A DNA stretch of 64,000 nucleotides from Candidatus Omnitrophota bacterium (GTDB lineage: Bacteria > Omnitrophota > Gorgyraeia > Gygaellales > Profunditerraquicolaceae). Every line of letters begins with the position of its first letter. The first letter of the stretch is position 1. The stretch is from positions 74,244 to 138,243 of the forward strand of contig JALOQK010000001.1 in the NCBI GenBank assembly GCA_025453395.1. The letters run 5' to 3'. The position numbers were made by a program, and so were the translations under genes. Positions 156 to 56,942 of this stretch are shown piece by piece. Below the pieces are notes generated by a model. That model ran no database searches. It was not told where the DNA came from and was given only the letters and a program-made list of their open reading frames with translations.

Positions 156-551
156 TTAAACTGCCGCGCCCCTTAGTTTCTCCTGCTCGTAGGCATCCAG
201 GATCCTTTTCTGCACATATTCCCGGAAGGCTTGCGTGATCGGATGGGCAATATCTTTCTGATCGCTTTGAGAATTCGCCGGCTGCTCCTGCGAAACTACC
301 GGTTGAACAACAACCGGCAACTGCGCGCCGCACTGATTACAATATTTACTGCGCACTTCATTCTTAAAATTGCATTTAGGGCAAGGCTGTTTAACTTTCC
401 TGGAGGGCATAGCGATAAACAACCCCTTAGTGCCTTCAATGACTTTAATATTTCTGACCACAAAGGCGTTGTCAAAGGTAAGCGTAGCGTATGCCTTTAG
501 TTTTTTGTCCGGAGAATCTTTCAAAAAAACCCTGACCTCGGTAATTTCCAT
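156..551 (-). CDS. spoVG: SpoVG-family protein with an inserted CxxC-x10-CxxC zinc ribbon
   Basis: N-terminus MEITEVRVFLKD...KLKAYATLTFDNAFVVRNIKVIEG..GLFIAMPSRK and the later DIAHPI motif match canonical SpoVG. Between them sits PCPKCNFKNEVRSKYCNQCG where SpoVG normally has about 8 residues (TPDGEFR). Confidence 0.8.
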   Translation of the reverse strand: MEITEVRVFLKDSPDKKLKAYATLTFDNAFVVRNIKVIEGTKGLFIAMPSRKVKQPCPKCNFKNEVRSKYCNQCGAQLPVVVQPVVSQEQPANSQSDQKDIAHPITQAFREYVQKRILDAYEQEKLRGAAV

Positions 552-4388: not shown

Positions 4389-4535
4389 AAAAAGTTACCT
4401 TAGCTGATAAAGGCTAACCCCAGCTTCTCTTCTTCAGGTGGCGAAGACGGCGGCGCATCTTTTTTCTTTTATGCGTGCGTATCTTCTGTCTTTTTCTTTT
4501 TCTGCCGCAAGGCATCGTTTACTCCCTTCGATCGT

Positions 4536-4712
4536 AAAACTAAAAATTAAAAAGTAAAAGCGCAAAACTATAATTTAAAACTAAAAATTAAGAAAAATGC
4601 ATAAAAAACAAAAGATAAAAGTGTAAAAGATTGTATTAACGTTTTTAGTTTCGTTTTTTTAGTTTTAAATTTTAAGCTGTAGTTTTTAATTTTGCGCTTT
4701 ACGCTTTACATT
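4536..4712. repeat. Heptamer-built AT-rich palindromic element, family B copy 1
   Basis: Left arm aaaagtaaaagcgcaaaactataatttaaaactaaaaatt mirrors right arm agtttttaattttgcgctttacgctttac; abuts the hisG stop. Confidence 0.7.
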
Positions 4713-11577: not shown

Positions 11578-11580
11578 AAA

Positions 11581-11660
11581 AATAAAGGGGACGGTTCAAA
11601 ATAAAGGGGACGGTTCAAAATAAAGGGGACGGTTCTATTAAATAGAGCCGTCCCCATATT
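11581..11660. terminator. Bidirectional rho-independent terminator with triplicated 19-bp left arm
   Basis: (aataaaggggacggttcaa)x3 then ttaaa tagagccgtcccc; hairpin GGGGACGGTTCTA/TAGAGCCGTCCCC flanked by an A-run upstream and T-run downstream. Lies between convergent genes. Confidence 0.7.
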
Positions 11661-22127: not shown

Positions 22128-22236
22128 CTTAGCTAAAAAATTAAAGCGTAAAGCTAAAAACTACAGTGCAAAATTAAAAATTTTTAATTTTGAATTATGG
22201 TTTTTAGTTTTACGCTTTTAGCTTTACGCTTTTTGC
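22128..22236. repeat. Family B heptamer palindrome, copy 2
   Basis: aaagcgtaaagctaaaaactacag...ggtttttagttttacgcttttagctttacgcttt. Confidence 0.7.
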
Positions 22237-22453: not shown

Positions 22454-22580
22454 ATGCCCTCCATTTGTTTATATTATACCCCAATCCAGTCAAAATCTCA
22501 ATCTTAAATTTTGCCAAAAAGGCTAACACCCGCGCAATACAAGTTAAGCGCGGGTGCCGGAACAAAACAACAATATCTAT

Positions 22581-22600
22581 TTAGCTAAAGCGTCTACAAA
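22581..22600. repeat. 20-bp direct repeat TTAGCTAAAGCGTCTACAAA (left boundary of 2-kb cassette)
   Basis: Identical 20-mer recurs at 24615-24634. Confidence 0.8.
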
Positions 22601-22603
22601 CTA

Positions 22604-23002
22604 TTAACTAACCTCAACGCCATGTTTTCGCTTAAATTCTTCTTTCACTTTGGGAAAAATCAGGAAAGATAATTTATAATAAGGTTTAATAAATAAGGAA
22701 TTTAACAACTGCGGGATTTCGCTTTCTGGTGTTACAGGCTCAAAGAAATATTCCTTGGCCTGCTCAACAGTTAAAAAAGGCTTCCAAAGAAGCATTCCAA
22801 CACCCATACCTAAAAATGTAAAAATATAAAGCATTGTTCCAGTTAATGGCAGGACTGCGCAAAAAATTATAAAACGGCTTGGTTTTGGCCCGAATATAAA
22901 TGCTAAAAAACAAATTGAGGCTATTATGCCTACGAAAATAACAAACATCATTACCAGAAAAGCTATAAAATTAACCAACTGTTTAAATTTTTCTTTGTTC
23001 AT
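22604..23002 (-). CDS. Small membrane protein, unknown function (132 aa)
   Basis: Three predicted TM helices; lies inside the direct-repeat-bounded cassette. Confidence 0.5.
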   Translation of the reverse strand: MNKEKFKQLVNFIAFLVMMFVIFVGIIASICFLAFIFGPKPSRFIIFCAVLPLTGTMLYIFTFLGMGVGMLLWKPFLTVEQAKEYFFEPVTPESEIPQLLNSLFIKPYYKLSFLIFPKVKEEFKRKHGVEVS

Positions 23003-23582: not shown

Positions 23583-23696
23583 ATTTATTATATCGCTGTC
23601 AAATCAAAATCTCAATTATAATTTTCGACCGGTCACAAATTGTGACCAGTTCATCTATTTCAGCTTTTGCCACCTCCCTGCCCAGAAAGGGCACAT

Positions 23697-23724
23697 TTGC
23701 GCCTGCCTGCCGGCAGGCAGGCAA
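23697..23724. repeat. 28-bp perfect palindrome TTGCGCCTGCCTGCCGGCAGGCAGGCAA (family C)
   Basis: Exact dyad symmetry. The same 22-bp core is at 46663-46684, with variants at 33170-33191 and 24655-24690. Confidence 0.85.
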
Positions 23725-23786
23725 TTCCGATAAGCACAAGGTATCTACCTTATTAGACGAGGGAGATTGTTAAATCTTACAAAAAT

Positions 23787-23826
23787 AAAAAGGACGGTTA
23801 TTTTTAATAGAACCGTCCCTTTATTT
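23787..23826. terminator. Bidirectional terminator hairpin GGACGGTT...AACCGTCC, downstream of brnA
   Basis: aaaaaggacggttatttttaatagaaccgtccctttattt; A-run upstream, T-run downstream. Confidence 0.7.
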
Positions 23827-24442: not shown

Positions 24443-24585
24443 TATTAGACGAAGGAGGTTGCTGAATCTTACACAAAAAGTGTAGGCCAGCTTATCCTAT
24501 AAAGCTGGGCCTTACAAAAAAGTCACAAGGTCACAAAAAAAGGACGGCTCATTTTAATGAGGCCGCCCTTTATCCTGCCCTTAAT
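24443..24585. repeat. Second copy of the ~80-bp 'ttagacgaRggaG...aaaggacgg...ccgtccctttat' element (with insertions); first copy at 23745-23830
   Basis: catattagacgaaggaggttgctgaatcttaca...aaaaaaaggacggctcattttaatgaggccgcccttta aligns with ccttattagacgagggagattgttaaatcttaca...aaaaaggacggttatttttaatagaaccgtcccttta. Confidence 0.65.
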
Positions 24586-24614: not shown

Positions 24615-24634
24615 TTAGCTAAAGCGTCTACAAA
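24615..24634. repeat. 20-bp direct repeat TTAGCTAAAGCGTCTACAAA (right boundary of cassette)
   Basis: Identical to 22581-22600. Confidence 0.8.
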
Positions 24635-24811
24635 TAATGAATTTTAAATTGTGGTTTTGCCTGCCTGTCTGCCGTAGGCAGACCTACCGGCAGGTAGGCG
24701 TTTTTCGCTTTTAGCTTTACGCTAACTAAGCTCTACCCGAGCTAGTGACAATCTGTCCTGCTTCGCCATTTAACTAACAAAATATGGTATGGCTTCGCAG
24801 AGACTGCGCCA

Positions 24812-29825: not shown

Positions 29826-29912
29826 CTTAAAATTTAAAGCGTAAAGCGTAAAACCATAATTCAAAATTCAAAGTTTTTAGTTTTACGTTTTTCGCTTTAC
29901 GTTTTACGCTTT
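29826..29912. repeat. Family B heptamer palindrome, copy 3
   Basis: aaagcgtaaagcgtaaaaccataattcaaaattcaaagtttttagttttacgtttttcgctttacgttttacgctttc; overlaps the ilvC stop codon. Confidence 0.75.
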
Positions 29913-33049: not shown

Positions 33050-33240
33050 ACCTCTAATCAATAACCAAACACCAAATTACAATAACCAAATAATCATCAA
33101 ACACCAATTACCAATACCCAAACCTGTTTGGTCCATTGGTTATTGATTATTGGATATTGTTTGATATTTGCCTGCCTGCCGGTAGGCAGGAAATTTGGTT
33201 ATTGATTATTAACATTTAGTTATTGTAATATTGCTCCTTT
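33050..33240. repeat. ~190-bp 'aaccaaa/ttggtt' palindromic element (family G) containing the family C near-palindrome CCTGCCTGCCGGTAGGCAGG at 33170-33191
   Basis: Left arm aataaccaaacaccaaattacaataaccaaataatcatcaaacaccaattaccaata mirrors right arm cattggttattgattattggatattgtttgata...tttggttattgattatt. Confidence 0.7.
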
Positions 33241-34892: not shown

Positions 34893-35028
34893 GTTAGCGT
34901 AAAGCGTAAAACGAAAAGTGTAAGACTATAATTTAAAATTCAAAAATTTTAAATTTTGCGCTATAGTTTTACATTTTACGCTTTTCGCTTCTGTTTTTCG
35001 CTTTTCGCTTTTCGCTTTTCGCTTTCTA
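34893..35028. repeat. Family B heptamer palindrome, copy 4, with (TTTTCGC)x6 tandem run
   Basis: gttagcgtaaagcgtaaaacgaaaagtg...gttttacattttacgcttttcgcttctgtttttcgcttttcgcttttcgcttttcgctttc. Confidence 0.75.
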
Positions 35029-44771: not shown

Positions 44772-46073
44772 TTAAAATTCTTCAACTAAACCTATAATCG
44801 CGCGCGACAATTTCTGCGGGTCATGGCGGATAAGCCCTTCGCTATTTACGATATCTTCTTCAATCACCCTATAACCCATATTACGCACATTTTGAATATC
44901 ATTGACGACCAAATACGCGTCTTCCTGCGCGTAACGCTTTAAGAGGTTAGCGGGGATTTCCCCGATATTGACAATACAATAATCAAAGATCTGCGGGTGG
45001 CTGTGCGCAACTAAAGTCTTGATATGATCCGATACCCGGAATCCGCCTGTTTCCCCGGGCTGGGTCATGATATTGCACACATAAACCTTTGTTGCCTGCG
45101 AAGCGACAATCGCGTCGGTTATTTCCTTGATCAACAGGTTCGGGATAATGCTTGTATAAAGCGAACCCGGGCCCAGGATAATCACCTGCGCCTCTTCAAT
45201 GGCCTTGATCGCTTCAGGAGTAGCAGAGGGCGAATCAGGCTTTAAATACACGCGGTTGATCAATCTTCCGGCTTTAGGGATCTTGGCCTCGCCTTCGGCA
45301 GAAGTCCCGTCTTTGTATTCAGCCGCCAAAACAACATTAGAAAGAGTAGCCGGTATAACTTGGCCTTTCAAGGCTAAAACACGGCTTGTTTCTTTAATCG
45401 CTTTCTCAAAATCGCCTGTCAGCTGGGTCATGACCGTAATAAAAAGATTCCCAAAACTATGCCCTCCCAGTTCTGACTTGGTGTCAAAACGAAACTGAAA
45501 AAGATCGCGCATTAAAGTAGGCGCGTCAGCTAATGCCACCAGGCAATTCCTGATATCTCCCGGAGGCAAGATATCAAACTCCTGGCGCAATCTTCCGGAA
45601 GACCCTCCGTCATCAGCGACAGTGACTATTGCGGTGTTATTAAAGGTATACTCTTTAAGGCCGGTTAACAAAACCGACATCCCTGTTCCGCCTCCGACAG
45701 TGACGATCTTAGGCCCCCGGCCGAGCTGTTTTTTATGATAAAGCATATCAAAAAGCTGGCTATCGCCTCCAGAAGGAATAAAAGCAGTTATAAAAGAACG
45801 GATTAATTTTACAAAGCTTAAAGCCAGTATAACAATCCCGCAGAAAATAAGGACTATATCTAAAAGGCTGTTGACCCAGAAATCCTCGCTTCTTAAAAGA
45901 ACAGAACCCAGAATTATAAGAAGCACCGATAAGAAAGATAACCCTATCCAGCGTTTTATCCCGATACCGGGAGAAAGCCATTTAACCAACCAGCCAAACC
46001 GGGAATGAAACCTGCCGCCCGGAAAGGCCCTGTTAGATTTTCTTTTCATCTTCCTGGCTGATAATCTTGACAA
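44772..46073 (-). CDS. yvcK: Gluconeogenesis factor YvcK/CofD-like (UPF0052) with N-terminal membrane extension
   Basis: KIVTVGGGTGMS...VADDGGSSGRLR core of YvcK. Preceded by about 100 aa holding two hydrophobic helices (WIGLSFLSVLLIILG..., IVLIFCGIVILALSFV). Start uncertain; several in-frame Mets. Confidence 0.75.
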   Translation of the reverse strand: MSRLSARKMKRKSNRAFPGGRFHSRFGWLVKWLSPGIGIKRWIGLSFLSVLLIILGSVLLRSEDFWVNSLLDIVLIFCGIVILALSFVKLIRSFITAFIPSGGDSQLFDMLYHKKQLGRGPKIVTVGGGTGMSVLLTGLKEYTFNNTAIVTVADDGGSSGRLRQEFDILPPGDIRNCLVALADAPTLMRDLFQFRFDTKSELGGHSFGNLFITVMTQLTGDFEKAIKETSRVLALKGQVIPATLSNVVLAAEYKDGTSAEGEAKIPKAGRLINRVYLKPDSPSATPEAIKAIEEAQVIILGPGSLYTSIIPNLLIKEITDAIVASQATKVYVCNIMTQPGETGGFRVSDHIKTLVAHSHPQIFDYCIVNIGEIPANLLKRYAQEDAYLVVNDIQNVRNMGYRVIEEDIVNSEGLIRHDPQKLSRAIIGLVEEF

Positions 46074-46503
46074 TCGCTTCTTGCGTTTCGCAAACTCTTA
46101 GGCTGTCACGGAAATATTTATCTTTAAGAAGGCGTGAAATCCTTGCCAACGCCTTAAGATGCGGGCCGGCAGAATCTTGAGGAGCTAAAAGGAGGAAAAA
46201 TATATAGGCCGGTTCTCCGTCTAGAGAATCAAAATCAACGCCTTTTTTGGAAAGGCCGAATGCCGCCACGAGCTTTGTGACATTCTCGGATTTAGCATGC
46301 GGAATAGCCACGCCTTGTCCTATGGCAGTAGAACCCAAAGACTCTCTGGCCATAAGCGCTTCAAATATCTTAGAGGCATCTTTTTTATCTACCTCTCCGG
46401 CATTGATCAGGGAGTTAACCAGCTCACTAATAATATCTTGCTTTTTAGTTGATTTGATTTCAGGGATGATCGCGCCTTGAGCTAAAAAATCCATTATTTT
46501 CAT
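46033..46503 (-). CDS. ptsN: PTS IIA-like nitrogen-regulatory protein PtsN (EIIA-Ntr)
   Basis: PTS EIIA type-2 fold with GQGVAIPHAK active-site His. Start moved to MKIMDF because the longer ORF reads through the tandem hairpin repeats. Confidence 0.75.
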   Translation of the reverse strand: MKIMDFLAQGAIIPEIKSTKKQDIISELVNSLINAGEVDKKDASKIFEALMARESLGSTAIGQGVAIPHAKSENVTKLVAAFGLSKKGVDFDSLDGEPAYIFFLLLAPQDSAGPHLKALARISRLLKDKYFRDSLRVCETQEAIVKIISQEDEKKI

Positions 46504-46520
46504 GCTTTTTTCTCCTTCAT

Positions 46521-46656
46521 AGTGAATGAACACCGGCCCATCCGATAGGGCCGGGTGTTAGCAGTAGTGAACACCGGCCCATCCGATAGGGCCGGGTGTT
46601 AGCAGTAGTGAACACCGGCCCATCCGATAGGGCCGGGTGTTAGCAGTAGTGAACAC
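46521..46656. repeat. Tandem array, 3 copies of a 41-bp unit each forming hairpin AACACCGGCCC-ATCCGATA-GGGCCGGGTGTT, directly upstream of ptsN
   Basis: Units begin at about 46521, 46566 and 46607 (plus a partial at 46648). Unit agtgaacaccggcccatccgatagggccgggtgttagcagt. Confidence 0.85.
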
Positions 46657-46662
46657 TCCGCG

Positions 46663-46684
46663 CCTGCCTGCCGGCAGGCAGGCA
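46663..46684. repeat. Family C 22-bp perfect palindrome GCCTGCCTGCCGGCAGGCAGGC
   Basis: Identical core to 23701-23722. Confidence 0.85.
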
Positions 46685-46830
46685 ATACATAATAAGCGCC
46701 GGGTGTAGGTATTATGTATAAAGAAACTATTCCTACTCCTCGCCTAATCGCTCTCAAATTTTTAGTGCTGCGCACCAAAAATTTGCTTCGCAGGCTTCGG
46801 AGTGAAATTTTTACTGCGTAAAAATTTCTA

Positions 46831-46903
46831 AGCGGGAGACGGGGTTCGAACCCGCGACATCGACCTTGGCAAGGTCGCGCTCTACCAACTGAGCCACTCC
46901 CGC
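46831..46903 (-). tRNA. tRNA-Gly (anticodon GCC)
   Basis: Revcomp GCGGGAGTGGCTCAGTTGGTAGAGCGCGACCTTGCCAAGGTCGATGTCGCGGGTTCGAACCCCGTCTCCCGCT; anticodon loop TTGCCAA. Confidence 0.9.
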
Positions 46904-53657: not shown

Positions 53658-53762
53658 TTTAGCTTAAAGCTAAAAGCGAAAAATTAAAAATCATAATTCA
53701 AAATTTAAAGTTTTTAATTTTACACTATAGTTTTTCGCTTTACGCTTTACGTTTTGCGCTTA
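53658..53762. repeat. Family B heptamer palindrome, copy 5
   Basis: ttagcttaaagctaaaagcgaaaaattaaaaatcataattcaaaatttaaagtttttaattttacactatagtttttcgctttacgctttacgttttgcgct. Confidence 0.75.
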
Positions 53763-56840: not shown

Positions 56841-56942
56841 AGTGTAAAATTAAAAGCGCAAAGCGTAAAATTAAAATTCAAAACTAAGAATTTTGAGCTT
56901 TAAATTATGGTTTTTAGTTTTTCGCTTTTCGTTTTTCGCTCT
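56841..56942. repeat. Family B heptamer palindrome, copy 6
   Basis: gtgtaaaattaaaagcgcaaagcgtaaaattaaaattcaaaactaagaattttgagctttaaattatggtttttagtttttcgcttttcgtttttcgctc. Confidence 0.75.

Follow-up and report, generated by a model that had tools for sequence, protein, structure and literature searches.

A three-unit hairpin array upstream of ptsN belongs to a dispersed family of modules docked at translation start regions in some Omnitrophota lineages

In the current study, a perfect tandem array of hairpins in the 5' leader of a ptsN-like gene was analysed within a 64,000-nucleotide (nt) window of a Candidatus Omnitrophota genome (contig JALOQK010000001.1, positions 74,244 to 138,243), and unprefixed coordinates refer to this window. 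The array is a member of a dispersed family of strand-specific, covarying hairpin modules that is limited to some Omnitrophota lineages, whose members dock flush with translation start regions and turn over rapidly between relatives, and its sequence indicates that the array itself is a very recent local triplication of one such member. Taken as a whole, these features would best be explained by a module akin to the repetitive extragenic palindromes (REPs) of proteobacteria that docks at ribosome-binding sites, was amplified by slippage at this locus and serves at the RNA level as a binding platform, an explanation which we put forward tentatively, its overall probability falling a little short of even.

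Repeat searching and folding bear out the three identical minus-strand hairpins that a preliminary description of this stretch had placed in the ptsN leader. Tandem Repeats Finder identified 46527-46656 as one outstanding tandem array of the window (period 41, 3.2 copies, 100% matches, score 260), and a repeat search returned three 48-nt copies at a spacing of 41 nt, each 100% identical; perfect periodicity starts at 46527 and not at 46521. The array comprises 3.17 copies of a 41-nt unit, made up of a 31-nt hairpin and a 10-nt linker (CACUACUGCU), and the hairpin core, AACACCGGCCCATCCGATAGGGCCGGGTGTT, has three exact matches in the window as against none in 100 shuffles. On the ptsN-sense strand, which is the minus strand, the most 5' hairpin (unit 1, 46611-46641, AACACCCGGCCC-UAUCGGAU-GGGCCGGUGUU; 51.8 bits, E 2e-12 with the covariance model presented below) is followed by the identical units 2 (46570-46600) and 3 (46529-46559), the last of which is proximal to the ribosome-binding site. 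Each unit folds into a stem of 11 base pairs, interrupted by one bulged C and closed by an 8-nt loop, with a predicted folding energy of -19.2 kcal/mol as RNA on either strand and of -11.2 kcal/mol as single-stranded DNA. A terminal mini-hairpin, CAU-UCACU-AUG (46518-46528, minus strand), lies directly 3' of unit 3, and the corresponding linker element is broken in the two distal units (CAC-UACU-GCU). The array is followed on the minus strand by CAUUCACUAUG and then by the Shine-Dalgarno (SD) sequence AAGGAG of ptsN (46512-46517), which the array precedes by 9 nt and which is located 8 nt 5' of the AUG at 46503. The GGA of this SD is situated 28 nt past the loop GGA of unit 3, and in predicted folds both the SD and the AUG stay unpaired.

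The partial fourth copy reported previously is the 3' foot of a degenerate unit of the sister type introduced below (46652-46706, minus strand; ACACCCGGCGC-UUAUUAUGUAUU ... GCGGAGUGUU). This unit is split by a 22-nt perfect GC palindrome (GCCTGCCTGCCGGCAGGCAGGC, 46662-46683, 'family C') that is inserted within it, and its 3' foot provides the TGAACAC direct repeat that bounds the array. The palindrome is one of a GC family, GCCTGCC(TGCC)GGCAGGC, found also at 23701-23718, 24660-24700 and 33171-33190. The window is part of a contig of a short-read JGI metagenome (Ga0392394_0000006; source sample JGI 3300037461 / SRR12684589), two assemblies of the organism exist, and the copy number of three rests on a single one of them because the independent Logan assembly (L005; fetched loci are numbered in this manner throughout) breaks exactly in the last unit. 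A perfect 41-nt repeat extending over 130 nt is hard for short reads, and an assembly artefact affecting the copy number or the array itself might accordingly be suspected; however, the unit itself is real, as it recurs on the margin of the independent contig and at a dozen further loci, and multi-unit arrays are also present in L011, L012 and L014, and we consider such an artefact highly improbable.

Beyond the window, the hairpin is distributed in the manner of a dispersed family. When one genome per species was scanned, the exact hairpin was located once, in a Candidatus Omnitrophota metagenome-assembled genome at an unrelated locus, while a metagenome scan in which only the stem was fixed yielded 13 further contigs; no match to the hairpin was obtained among viral contigs, on which basis a phage origin was ruled out. 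Following removal of duplicates, the identical 31-mer was present at 12 distinct loci in Omnitrophota metagenomes, and at 11 of these it occupies the sense strand of the downstream gene, flush with the start region. The downstream genes are mutually unrelated and include ptsN, rplS (ribosomal protein L19), spoVG, dnaE, and genes for a glycosyltransferase, an entericidin-like lipoprotein, a DUF3185 protein, a CBM11 secreted protein, a treble-clef zinc-finger protein and small membrane proteins. From array-terminal units, the SD starts 9-13 nt and the start codon 20-26 nt past the hairpin, and at dnaE (L017/L018), which has no SD, the AUG itself borders on the module. In L009 alone is there a clear departure from this pattern, the unit being in the antisense orientation and located between a pair of tRNA genes. 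The earlier view of the array as a ptsN leader device is therefore untenable, since the same hairpin precedes at least 10 other unrelated genes and is missing from the ptsN leaders of relatives (see below).

A covariance model of the hairpin (R1) gave 29 hits at E < 1e-4 in the 155 kb constituted by the fetched loci and the window, 11 of them in one 10-kb contig (L014), and the same units scored approximately 50 bits in the sense and approximately 12 bits in the antisense orientation. When applied to the window with filters off, the model returned exactly four hits, namely the three array units and 24482-24514. The fourth of these belongs to a GGA-loop unit with another stem (GGCCCAGCUU-UAUAGGAU-AAGCUGGCCU, 24469-24514, minus strand, 41.1 bits) that carries the mini-hairpin ACAC-UUUUU-GUGU and has no adjoining ribosome-binding site. 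One unit in L014 (8890-8944) is located within the 3' end of an upstream open reading frame (ORF) of 504 aa, where it encodes the last ~18 residues of an acyltransferase/PP-binding protein, the stop codon of which overlaps the start of the next gene. A known RNA family was ruled out by searches of Rfam 15, which produced only chance microRNA matches in the window (at most 20 bits, as compared to gathering scores of at least 70) and no matches at E <= 1 in the unit-rich L014, and no description of the hairpin family was found in the searchable literature.

The individual modules share a common anatomy in which the loop is constant and the stems differ. On the gene-sense strand, each consists of an 11-bp hairpin, the foot of which reads ACAC(C)C.../...GGUGU and in which a bulged C is invariant, followed by an adjoining mini-hairpin of 3-5 bp with a pyrimidine-rich loop (UACU, UUCU). 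The 8-nt loop UAUNGGAU is kept across 23 family members with differing stems, the GGA at loop positions 5-7 being present in 23/23, a finding which lends support to the earlier suggestion that the constant loop may mark a binding site. At least ten different stems occur (for example, in units neighbouring the identical hairpin, CCCAGCC/GGCUGGG, CCAAUCC/GGAUUGG, CUUGGCC/GGCCAAG, CCGACA/UGUCGG and CCGAACA/UGUUCGG), in all of which complementarity is kept. In the set of 23 distinct units, pairing extends to 96.8% of stem cells, and both sides have changed in 10 of the 11 pairs, figures that include seven inner pairs ascertained by requiring pairing, the outer four pairs and the mini-hairpin being unbiased in this respect; none of 500 shuffles reached the observed values, and slid registers paired at no more than 43%. 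The outer four pairs covary too, as do the mini-hairpin arms (CAU/AUG, CAC/GUG, CGC/GCG, CCGC/GCGG, GUCC/GGAC, GUCU/AGAC, GCCGC/GCGGC and ACAC/GUGU), and in two variants the 5' arm of the mini-hairpin, CUCC, pairs with the SD itself. Loop-loop kissing through the quasi-palindromic AUC-G-GAU was considered and rejected because loop position 4 varies freely (C, A or U).

Two further forms of the module were encountered. In nested forms, one unit carries a complete second module, mini-hairpin included, at the centre of its loop, UAUC^[module]^GGAUA, and such units fold as three-way junctions with complementary outer stems, in which a weak excess of G.U pairs was noted (several pairs, counted by eye). 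The nested unit of L007 was at one point regarded as a chimera of two units, an explanation that was dropped as folding pairs its outer arms via G.U. The sister type possesses a 12-nt loop, UUAUGAGGAAUU, and intact copies of it precede frr and tRNA-Gly in L023 and L024, while two degenerate copies are present in the window, one being the split unit beside the array and the other, at 22513-22558 on the minus strand, lacking GGA (GCACCCGCGC-UUAACUUGUAUU-GCGCGGGUGU, with the mini-hairpin GCC-UUUUU-GGC) and lying upstream of a TTGAGA-17-TATAAT promoter. The sister-type modules of L023 and L024 that occupy the 100-170 nt before tRNA-Gly run precisely to the first nucleotide of the tRNA, and in the frr leader of L023 (568-625) the CUCC arm of the sister-type mini-hairpin pairs with the SD.

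Comparison with relatives indicates that the array was acquired within its own lineage. The ptsN locus was fetched from L019 (PtsN 83% identical, on a 714-kb contig), L020-22, L023-25, L026-35 (one species in ten datasets) and L036-39, and the compared relatives, the PtsN of which is 77-83% identical, all keep the order frr-tRNA-ptsN-cofD-HPr-EI. No GGA unit is present in the ptsN leader at any of these loci, which rules out a ptsN-specific leader, marks the array as a lineage-specific acquisition and leaves it, by the criterion of the preliminary description, unconserved in relatives; as synteny is retained in relatives that are devoid of the array, the family is patchy and its turnover fast. 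The covariance model likewise gave no hits in approximately 50 kb of syntenic DNA from two other relatives. In L036, only ~50 nt without any hairpin separate tRNA-Gly from ptsN, and its sequence looks like an empty site, whereas other relatives carry unrelated hairpins in the tRNA-Gly/ptsN spacer and just upstream of the frr and ptsN SDs. In L019, the closest relative with a long contig, an ORF of ~200 aa between tRNA-Lys and tRNA-Leu (1335-1945) resembles, by eye, a LAGLIDADG homing endonuclease, a position at which the window has spacer only.

Turnover and constraint can be viewed side by side in the pair L014 and L016, whose identity over 1.7 kb is 88% and between which 37 of 176 four-fold sites (21%) have changed. 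The module adjoining the SD of a shared lipoprotein gene in L014 (44 nt, with another stem) is different from or additional to that of L016, and its divergence is too great for a local duplication. In a nested unit shared by both, the outer arms and mini-hairpins have diverged approximately as fast as neutral sites, including a deletion, but the two intact GGA hairpins are identical at 31/31 and 32/32 positions (63/63; probability ~4e-7 at the four-fold rate). Given this identity in the face of 21% four-fold divergence, the intact hairpins appear to be either under constraint at the level of the host or repeatedly homogenised.

These observations can be assembled into a proposed history of the locus. 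Modules would spread by copy-and-paste, landing immediately 5' of a single-stranded, GGA-containing purine motif, the targets being a gene's SD, the loop centre of another module (from which the nested three-way junction would result) or the 5' end of tRNA-Gly; that the family spreads in this manner with a preference for sites 5' of such motifs, and is REP-like in kind, we hold to be highly probable. The ancestral state at ptsN would have been a single module between the remains of an older unit and the ribosome-binding site. A 41-nt segment is flanked on both sides by the 7-nt direct repeat TGAACAC, provided by its own start and by the foot of the degenerate unit, and replication slippage or unequal exchange between these repeats, with homologous slippage thereafter, would have generated two and then three identical copies. 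Such an event, as judged from the sequence, would account for the period, the perfect identity, the additional 0.2 copy and the broken mini-hairpins of the distal linkers beside an intact terminal one.

A spreading element of this kind need not serve its host, and a purely selfish or neutral REP-like palindrome is the principal rival reading, though clearly short of an even chance. It would act at the DNA level and be mobilised as single-stranded DNA by a RAYT or IS200-type enzyme, another HUH enzyme or template switching, its placement resulting from a choice of single-stranded GGA targets, the direction of replication and the purging of harmful insertions, and it would be tolerated at ptsN without a role in expression. 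Identical copies at many unrelated loci in several species, the patchy distribution with empty sites in relatives, the nested insertions, degenerate copies and other palindromes inserted in a unit, the difference in a whole module between genomes that are 88% identical, the near absence of G.U pairs from the main hairpin and the presence of other palindrome families in the same intergenic regions all fit this proposal. So does the location of nearly all window genes on one strand, because of which orientation relative to genes and orientation relative to replication are inseparable for these units. On the other hand, variable stems with a conserved loop reverse the pattern of classical REPs, the conservation of intact orthologous hairpins greatly exceeds that of four-fold sites, which implies host constraint or very frequent conversion, and arrays are flush with the SD even where they could have settled in over 100 nt of free intergenic DNA further upstream. 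The distance to GGAG, moreover, differs by 1-4 nt among copies and one of them directly adjoins an AUG without SD, which is a poor fit to a fixed target, and no transposase was found in the 185 kb examined.

The alternative which we favour, again at somewhat under even probability, is that the hairpins, once transcribed, are of use to the host by providing a binding platform. The array would be transcribed as the 5' leader of ptsN, probably by read-through from the tRNA cluster, to give an RNA with three independent hairpins of -19 kcal/mol, a free SD and AUG, and GGA loops at 41-nt spacing. A dimeric GGA-binding protein of the CsrA type would then bridge a loop site and the SD, thereby occluding the latter, and additional copies would supply more binding sites and hence raise occupancy at ptsN-yvcK-ptsH-ptsI, the most likely effect on the host being a tuned translation or stability of this mRNA. 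This reading draws on the invariant loop GGA, the occurrence of GGAUG as in the CsrA consensus, the SD GGA 28 nt away, the 41-nt spacing of the loops, the variants in which a mini-hairpin sequesters the SD and the conservation of orthologous hairpins. A bolder extension, which we regard as unlikely, would see in the module a portable, self-propagating cis-regulatory RNA cassette that inserts flush with ribosome-binding sites, each insertion recruiting a gene (here ptsN, with three-fold dosage) to the regulon of a global GGA-binding regulator of translation in Omnitrophota; the nested three-way junction would then represent a second functional architecture, and the regulon would be wired through transposition of its own operator RNA.

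Several points weigh against a regulatory function of this type. Genes for csrA, fliW, RAYT and IS200-type proteins were not found in the 185 kb examined: tblastn with YafM and with the TnpA proteins of IS200 and IS608 returned nothing, and Pfam analysis of 20 small ORFs of the window identified no CsrA, FliW, RAYT or IS200 domains, nor was a paper linking CsrA to Omnitrophota found in the literature. To the ascertainment of the inner stem pairs mentioned above must be added that the main-hairpin stems are nearly pure Watson-Crick (273 Watson-Crick pairs, 3 G.U and 3 A.C), a composition which is unusual for an RNA structure and more in keeping with a palindrome at the DNA level; the asymmetry of G.U versus A.C as a test of RNA against DNA gave no signal in the main hairpin (3 versus 3). 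Certain units lie away from any ribosome-binding site (that at 24482, L009, and the sister units upstream of tRNA-Gly or a promoter), the patchy spread among close relatives argues against a conserved regulon, and the conservation between L014 and L016 is based on two hairpins and could reflect gene conversion. Finally, a promoter scan of the spacer between tRNA-Gly and ptsN revealed no convincing sigma-70 promoter, and a candidate within the mini-hairpin (TACTAT) was discarded, since a suitably spaced -35 element is missing and transcripts beginning there would lose the SD. Two near-consensus promoters of the form TTGAGA-17 nt-TATAAT occur on the minus strand at ~22470-22500 and ~23600-23630, suggesting that sigma-70-type promoters are recognisable in this organism, and nothing comparable is seen before ptsN.

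That the array separates tRNA-Gly from ptsN, and that no clear promoter intervenes, bears also on the attenuator proposed in the preliminary description, according to which leaky terminators would insulate the PTS-Ntr operon from the strongly transcribed tRNA-Lys/Leu/Gly cluster. A stable GC stem followed by UGUUCAUU was flagged as terminator-like by a simple scan, and the unrelated hairpins in the same spacer of relatives would accord with such a role. This proposal is nonetheless weak, and we deem it very unlikely, because a real U-tract is absent (the hairpin tail reads UGUUCAYU or CACUACUG), by which an intrinsic, Rho-independent terminator was ruled out, and because the same unit directly precedes rplS, spoVG and dnaE and is found in an operon junction, where termination would be harmful; the conserved loop and mini-hairpin would furthermore be superfluous for a terminator, and the ~50-nt spacer of L036 is free of hairpins. 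Comparably small is the probability that the array acts as a generic 5' stabiliser or insulator, in which any stable stem 5' of the SD would shield the mRNA end and block upstream pairing, the details of sequence being accidental. The unpaired SD and AUG, the unrelated hairpins just upstream of the frr and ptsN SDs in other relatives and the highly expressed type of several downstream genes (rplS, frr, spoVG) agree with this notion, but it leaves the invariant GGA, the bulged C, the covarying mini-hairpin and the units remote from ribosome-binding sites unexplained.

The ptsN-like gene itself (PF00359, an EIIA protein of 156 aa; 46033-46503, minus strand) is followed by genes for cofD/yvcK-like, HPr and enzyme I proteins, and is preceded on the same strand, upstream of the leader, by those for tRNA-Gly, tRNA-Leu, tRNA-Lys, frr, pyrH, tsf and rpsB; tRNA-Gly(GCC), at 46831-46903 on the minus strand, is the last member of the tRNA-Lys/Leu/Gly cluster. 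Its start at 46503 (MKIMDF), as assigned in the preliminary description, is upheld, since a length of 156 aa is shared by almost all of the 120 closest homologues. The accompanying statement that the longest ORF reads through the array requires correction, in that no more than the initial 7 nt of the array are covered by the GTG-start ORF at 46533 (166 aa); this 166-aa ORF is the JGI gene call for PtsN, which is 10 residues too long and extends into the hairpin. Directly 3' of tRNA-Gly lies an AT-rich hairpin with a GCA loop (GAAAUUUUUAC-GCA-GUAAAAAUUUC; 46804-46828 in the window, 2414-2440 in L019), which may be a signal for tRNA-trailer processing or termination, given that compensatory changes keep it in L019.

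Other repeats and unusual features were observed elsewhere in the window. Long, AT-rich imperfect palindromes (arms of up to 50 nt, composed of heptamers like AGCGTAA / TTTACGC) occupy intergenic gaps behind minus-strand genes at 4535-4631, 22131-22230, 29835-29912, 34896-35026, 53665-53761 and 56910-56940, and may constitute a second repeat family or unusual bidirectional terminators. Two more repeated intergenic boxes, TTTGTAGACGCTTTAGCTAA (~22585-22610 and ~24615-24640, minus strand) and GTAAGATTnAnCAAnCTCCnTCGTCTAATA (~23760-23790 and ~24445-24475), fall within a 3-kb stretch which also holds an orphan NUMOD3 protein, two proteins without Pfam assignment and a CopG-antitoxin pair, and which looks like a small mobile island. 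A perfect 19-nt repeat, AAAATAAAGGGGACGGTTC, is present in three tandem copies at 11579-11635, just 3' of a large plus-strand gene, and SpoVG (156-551, minus strand; also in L011) contains a zinc-ribbon insertion of ~25 residues within the SpoVG domain.

Even if the family is only a REP-like repeat, an uncultured phylum would harbour a hairpin element with an unusual rule, that of docking in the sense orientation at ribosome-binding sites and in its own loops, and public gene calls are distorted by this hairpin, as exemplified by the overlong JGI call for PtsN. If the GGA loops are indeed bound, the modules would represent a new class of 5'-leader RNA motif in which regulatory sites spread by copy-and-paste, the ptsN array being a natural dosage series. 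The covariance model of the hairpin makes the binding idea testable across Omnitrophota genomes and metatranscriptomes.

Among known systems, two were ruled out: the units are head-to-tail with an identical 10-nt linker and no unique spacers, which excludes a CRISPR array, and a reading of the sequence against the layout of integron attC sites places the AAC/GTT boxes at the outer rather than the inner stem ends, the unit being in addition far shorter and the flanking genes core genes. The guanidine-II (mini-ykkC) riboswitch similarly consists of tandem small hairpins with covarying stems and conserved loops directly upstream of the SD, but its loop is ACGR and its genes form a specific set (guanidine exporters), and here no Rfam match is obtained even at E <= 10, loop position 4 varies and kissing is not conserved. 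The closest likeness in kind is to the RAYT-mobilised REP/BIME/REPIN elements of proteobacteria, which are also dispersed extragenic imperfect palindromes of 30-40 nt with a bulge, occur singly, in tandem or in clusters, are lineage-specific with rapid turnover and are co-transcribed with flanking genes (as predicted here). REPs further carry a conserved GTAG-type tetranucleotide at the 5' foot, to which a G-Y-A-R motif beside the foot on the antisense strand may correspond here; at this position, the window array has AGTAGTG and other units have GTAA, GCAG, GCAA, GAAA or CCAG, within the covarying mini-hairpin. In contrast to the present family, REPs have conserved stems and variable loops, follow stop codons instead of lying in the sense orientation flush with ribosome-binding sites and form inverted pairs instead of head-to-tail or loop-nested units, and no RAYT gene was found in the sequence examined here.

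In its putative mode of working, the family resembles the targets of CsrA/RsmA (the hcnA, glgC and hag leaders and the CsrB/RsmZ sponges), with which it shares an invariant GGA in the loop of a stable hairpin, tandem hairpins and a second GGA in the SD, at a distance of 28 nt from the loop GGA in the window. The CsrA consensus derived by systematic evolution of ligands by exponential enrichment (SELEX) is RUACARGGAUGU, and a CsrA dimer can bridge sites 10-63 nt apart, a range that takes in the 28 nt of the window; the loop GGAUG matches the 3' part of this consensus, the ACA part being absent here. Unlike CsrA targets, an identical hairpin is found at many genes, units are nested and some lie far from an SD, and csrA itself was not detected in the sequence examined, so that the likeness would concern the mode of working and membership cannot be claimed. 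MIRU-type minisatellites of mycobacteria are likewise direct tandem repeats of 40-100 bp that are dispersed over many intergenic sites, inside operons as well as between them, share the orientation of the neighbouring genes and readily change in copy number by slippage. MIRUs are not known to form hairpins and contain short ORFs that are coupled to the genes beside them, whereas the present units all form strong hairpins, with read-through blocked by stop codons. Overall, the family resembles REP/BIME elements in kind, CsrA targets in its presumed working and, as a tandem array, the MIRU minisatellites.

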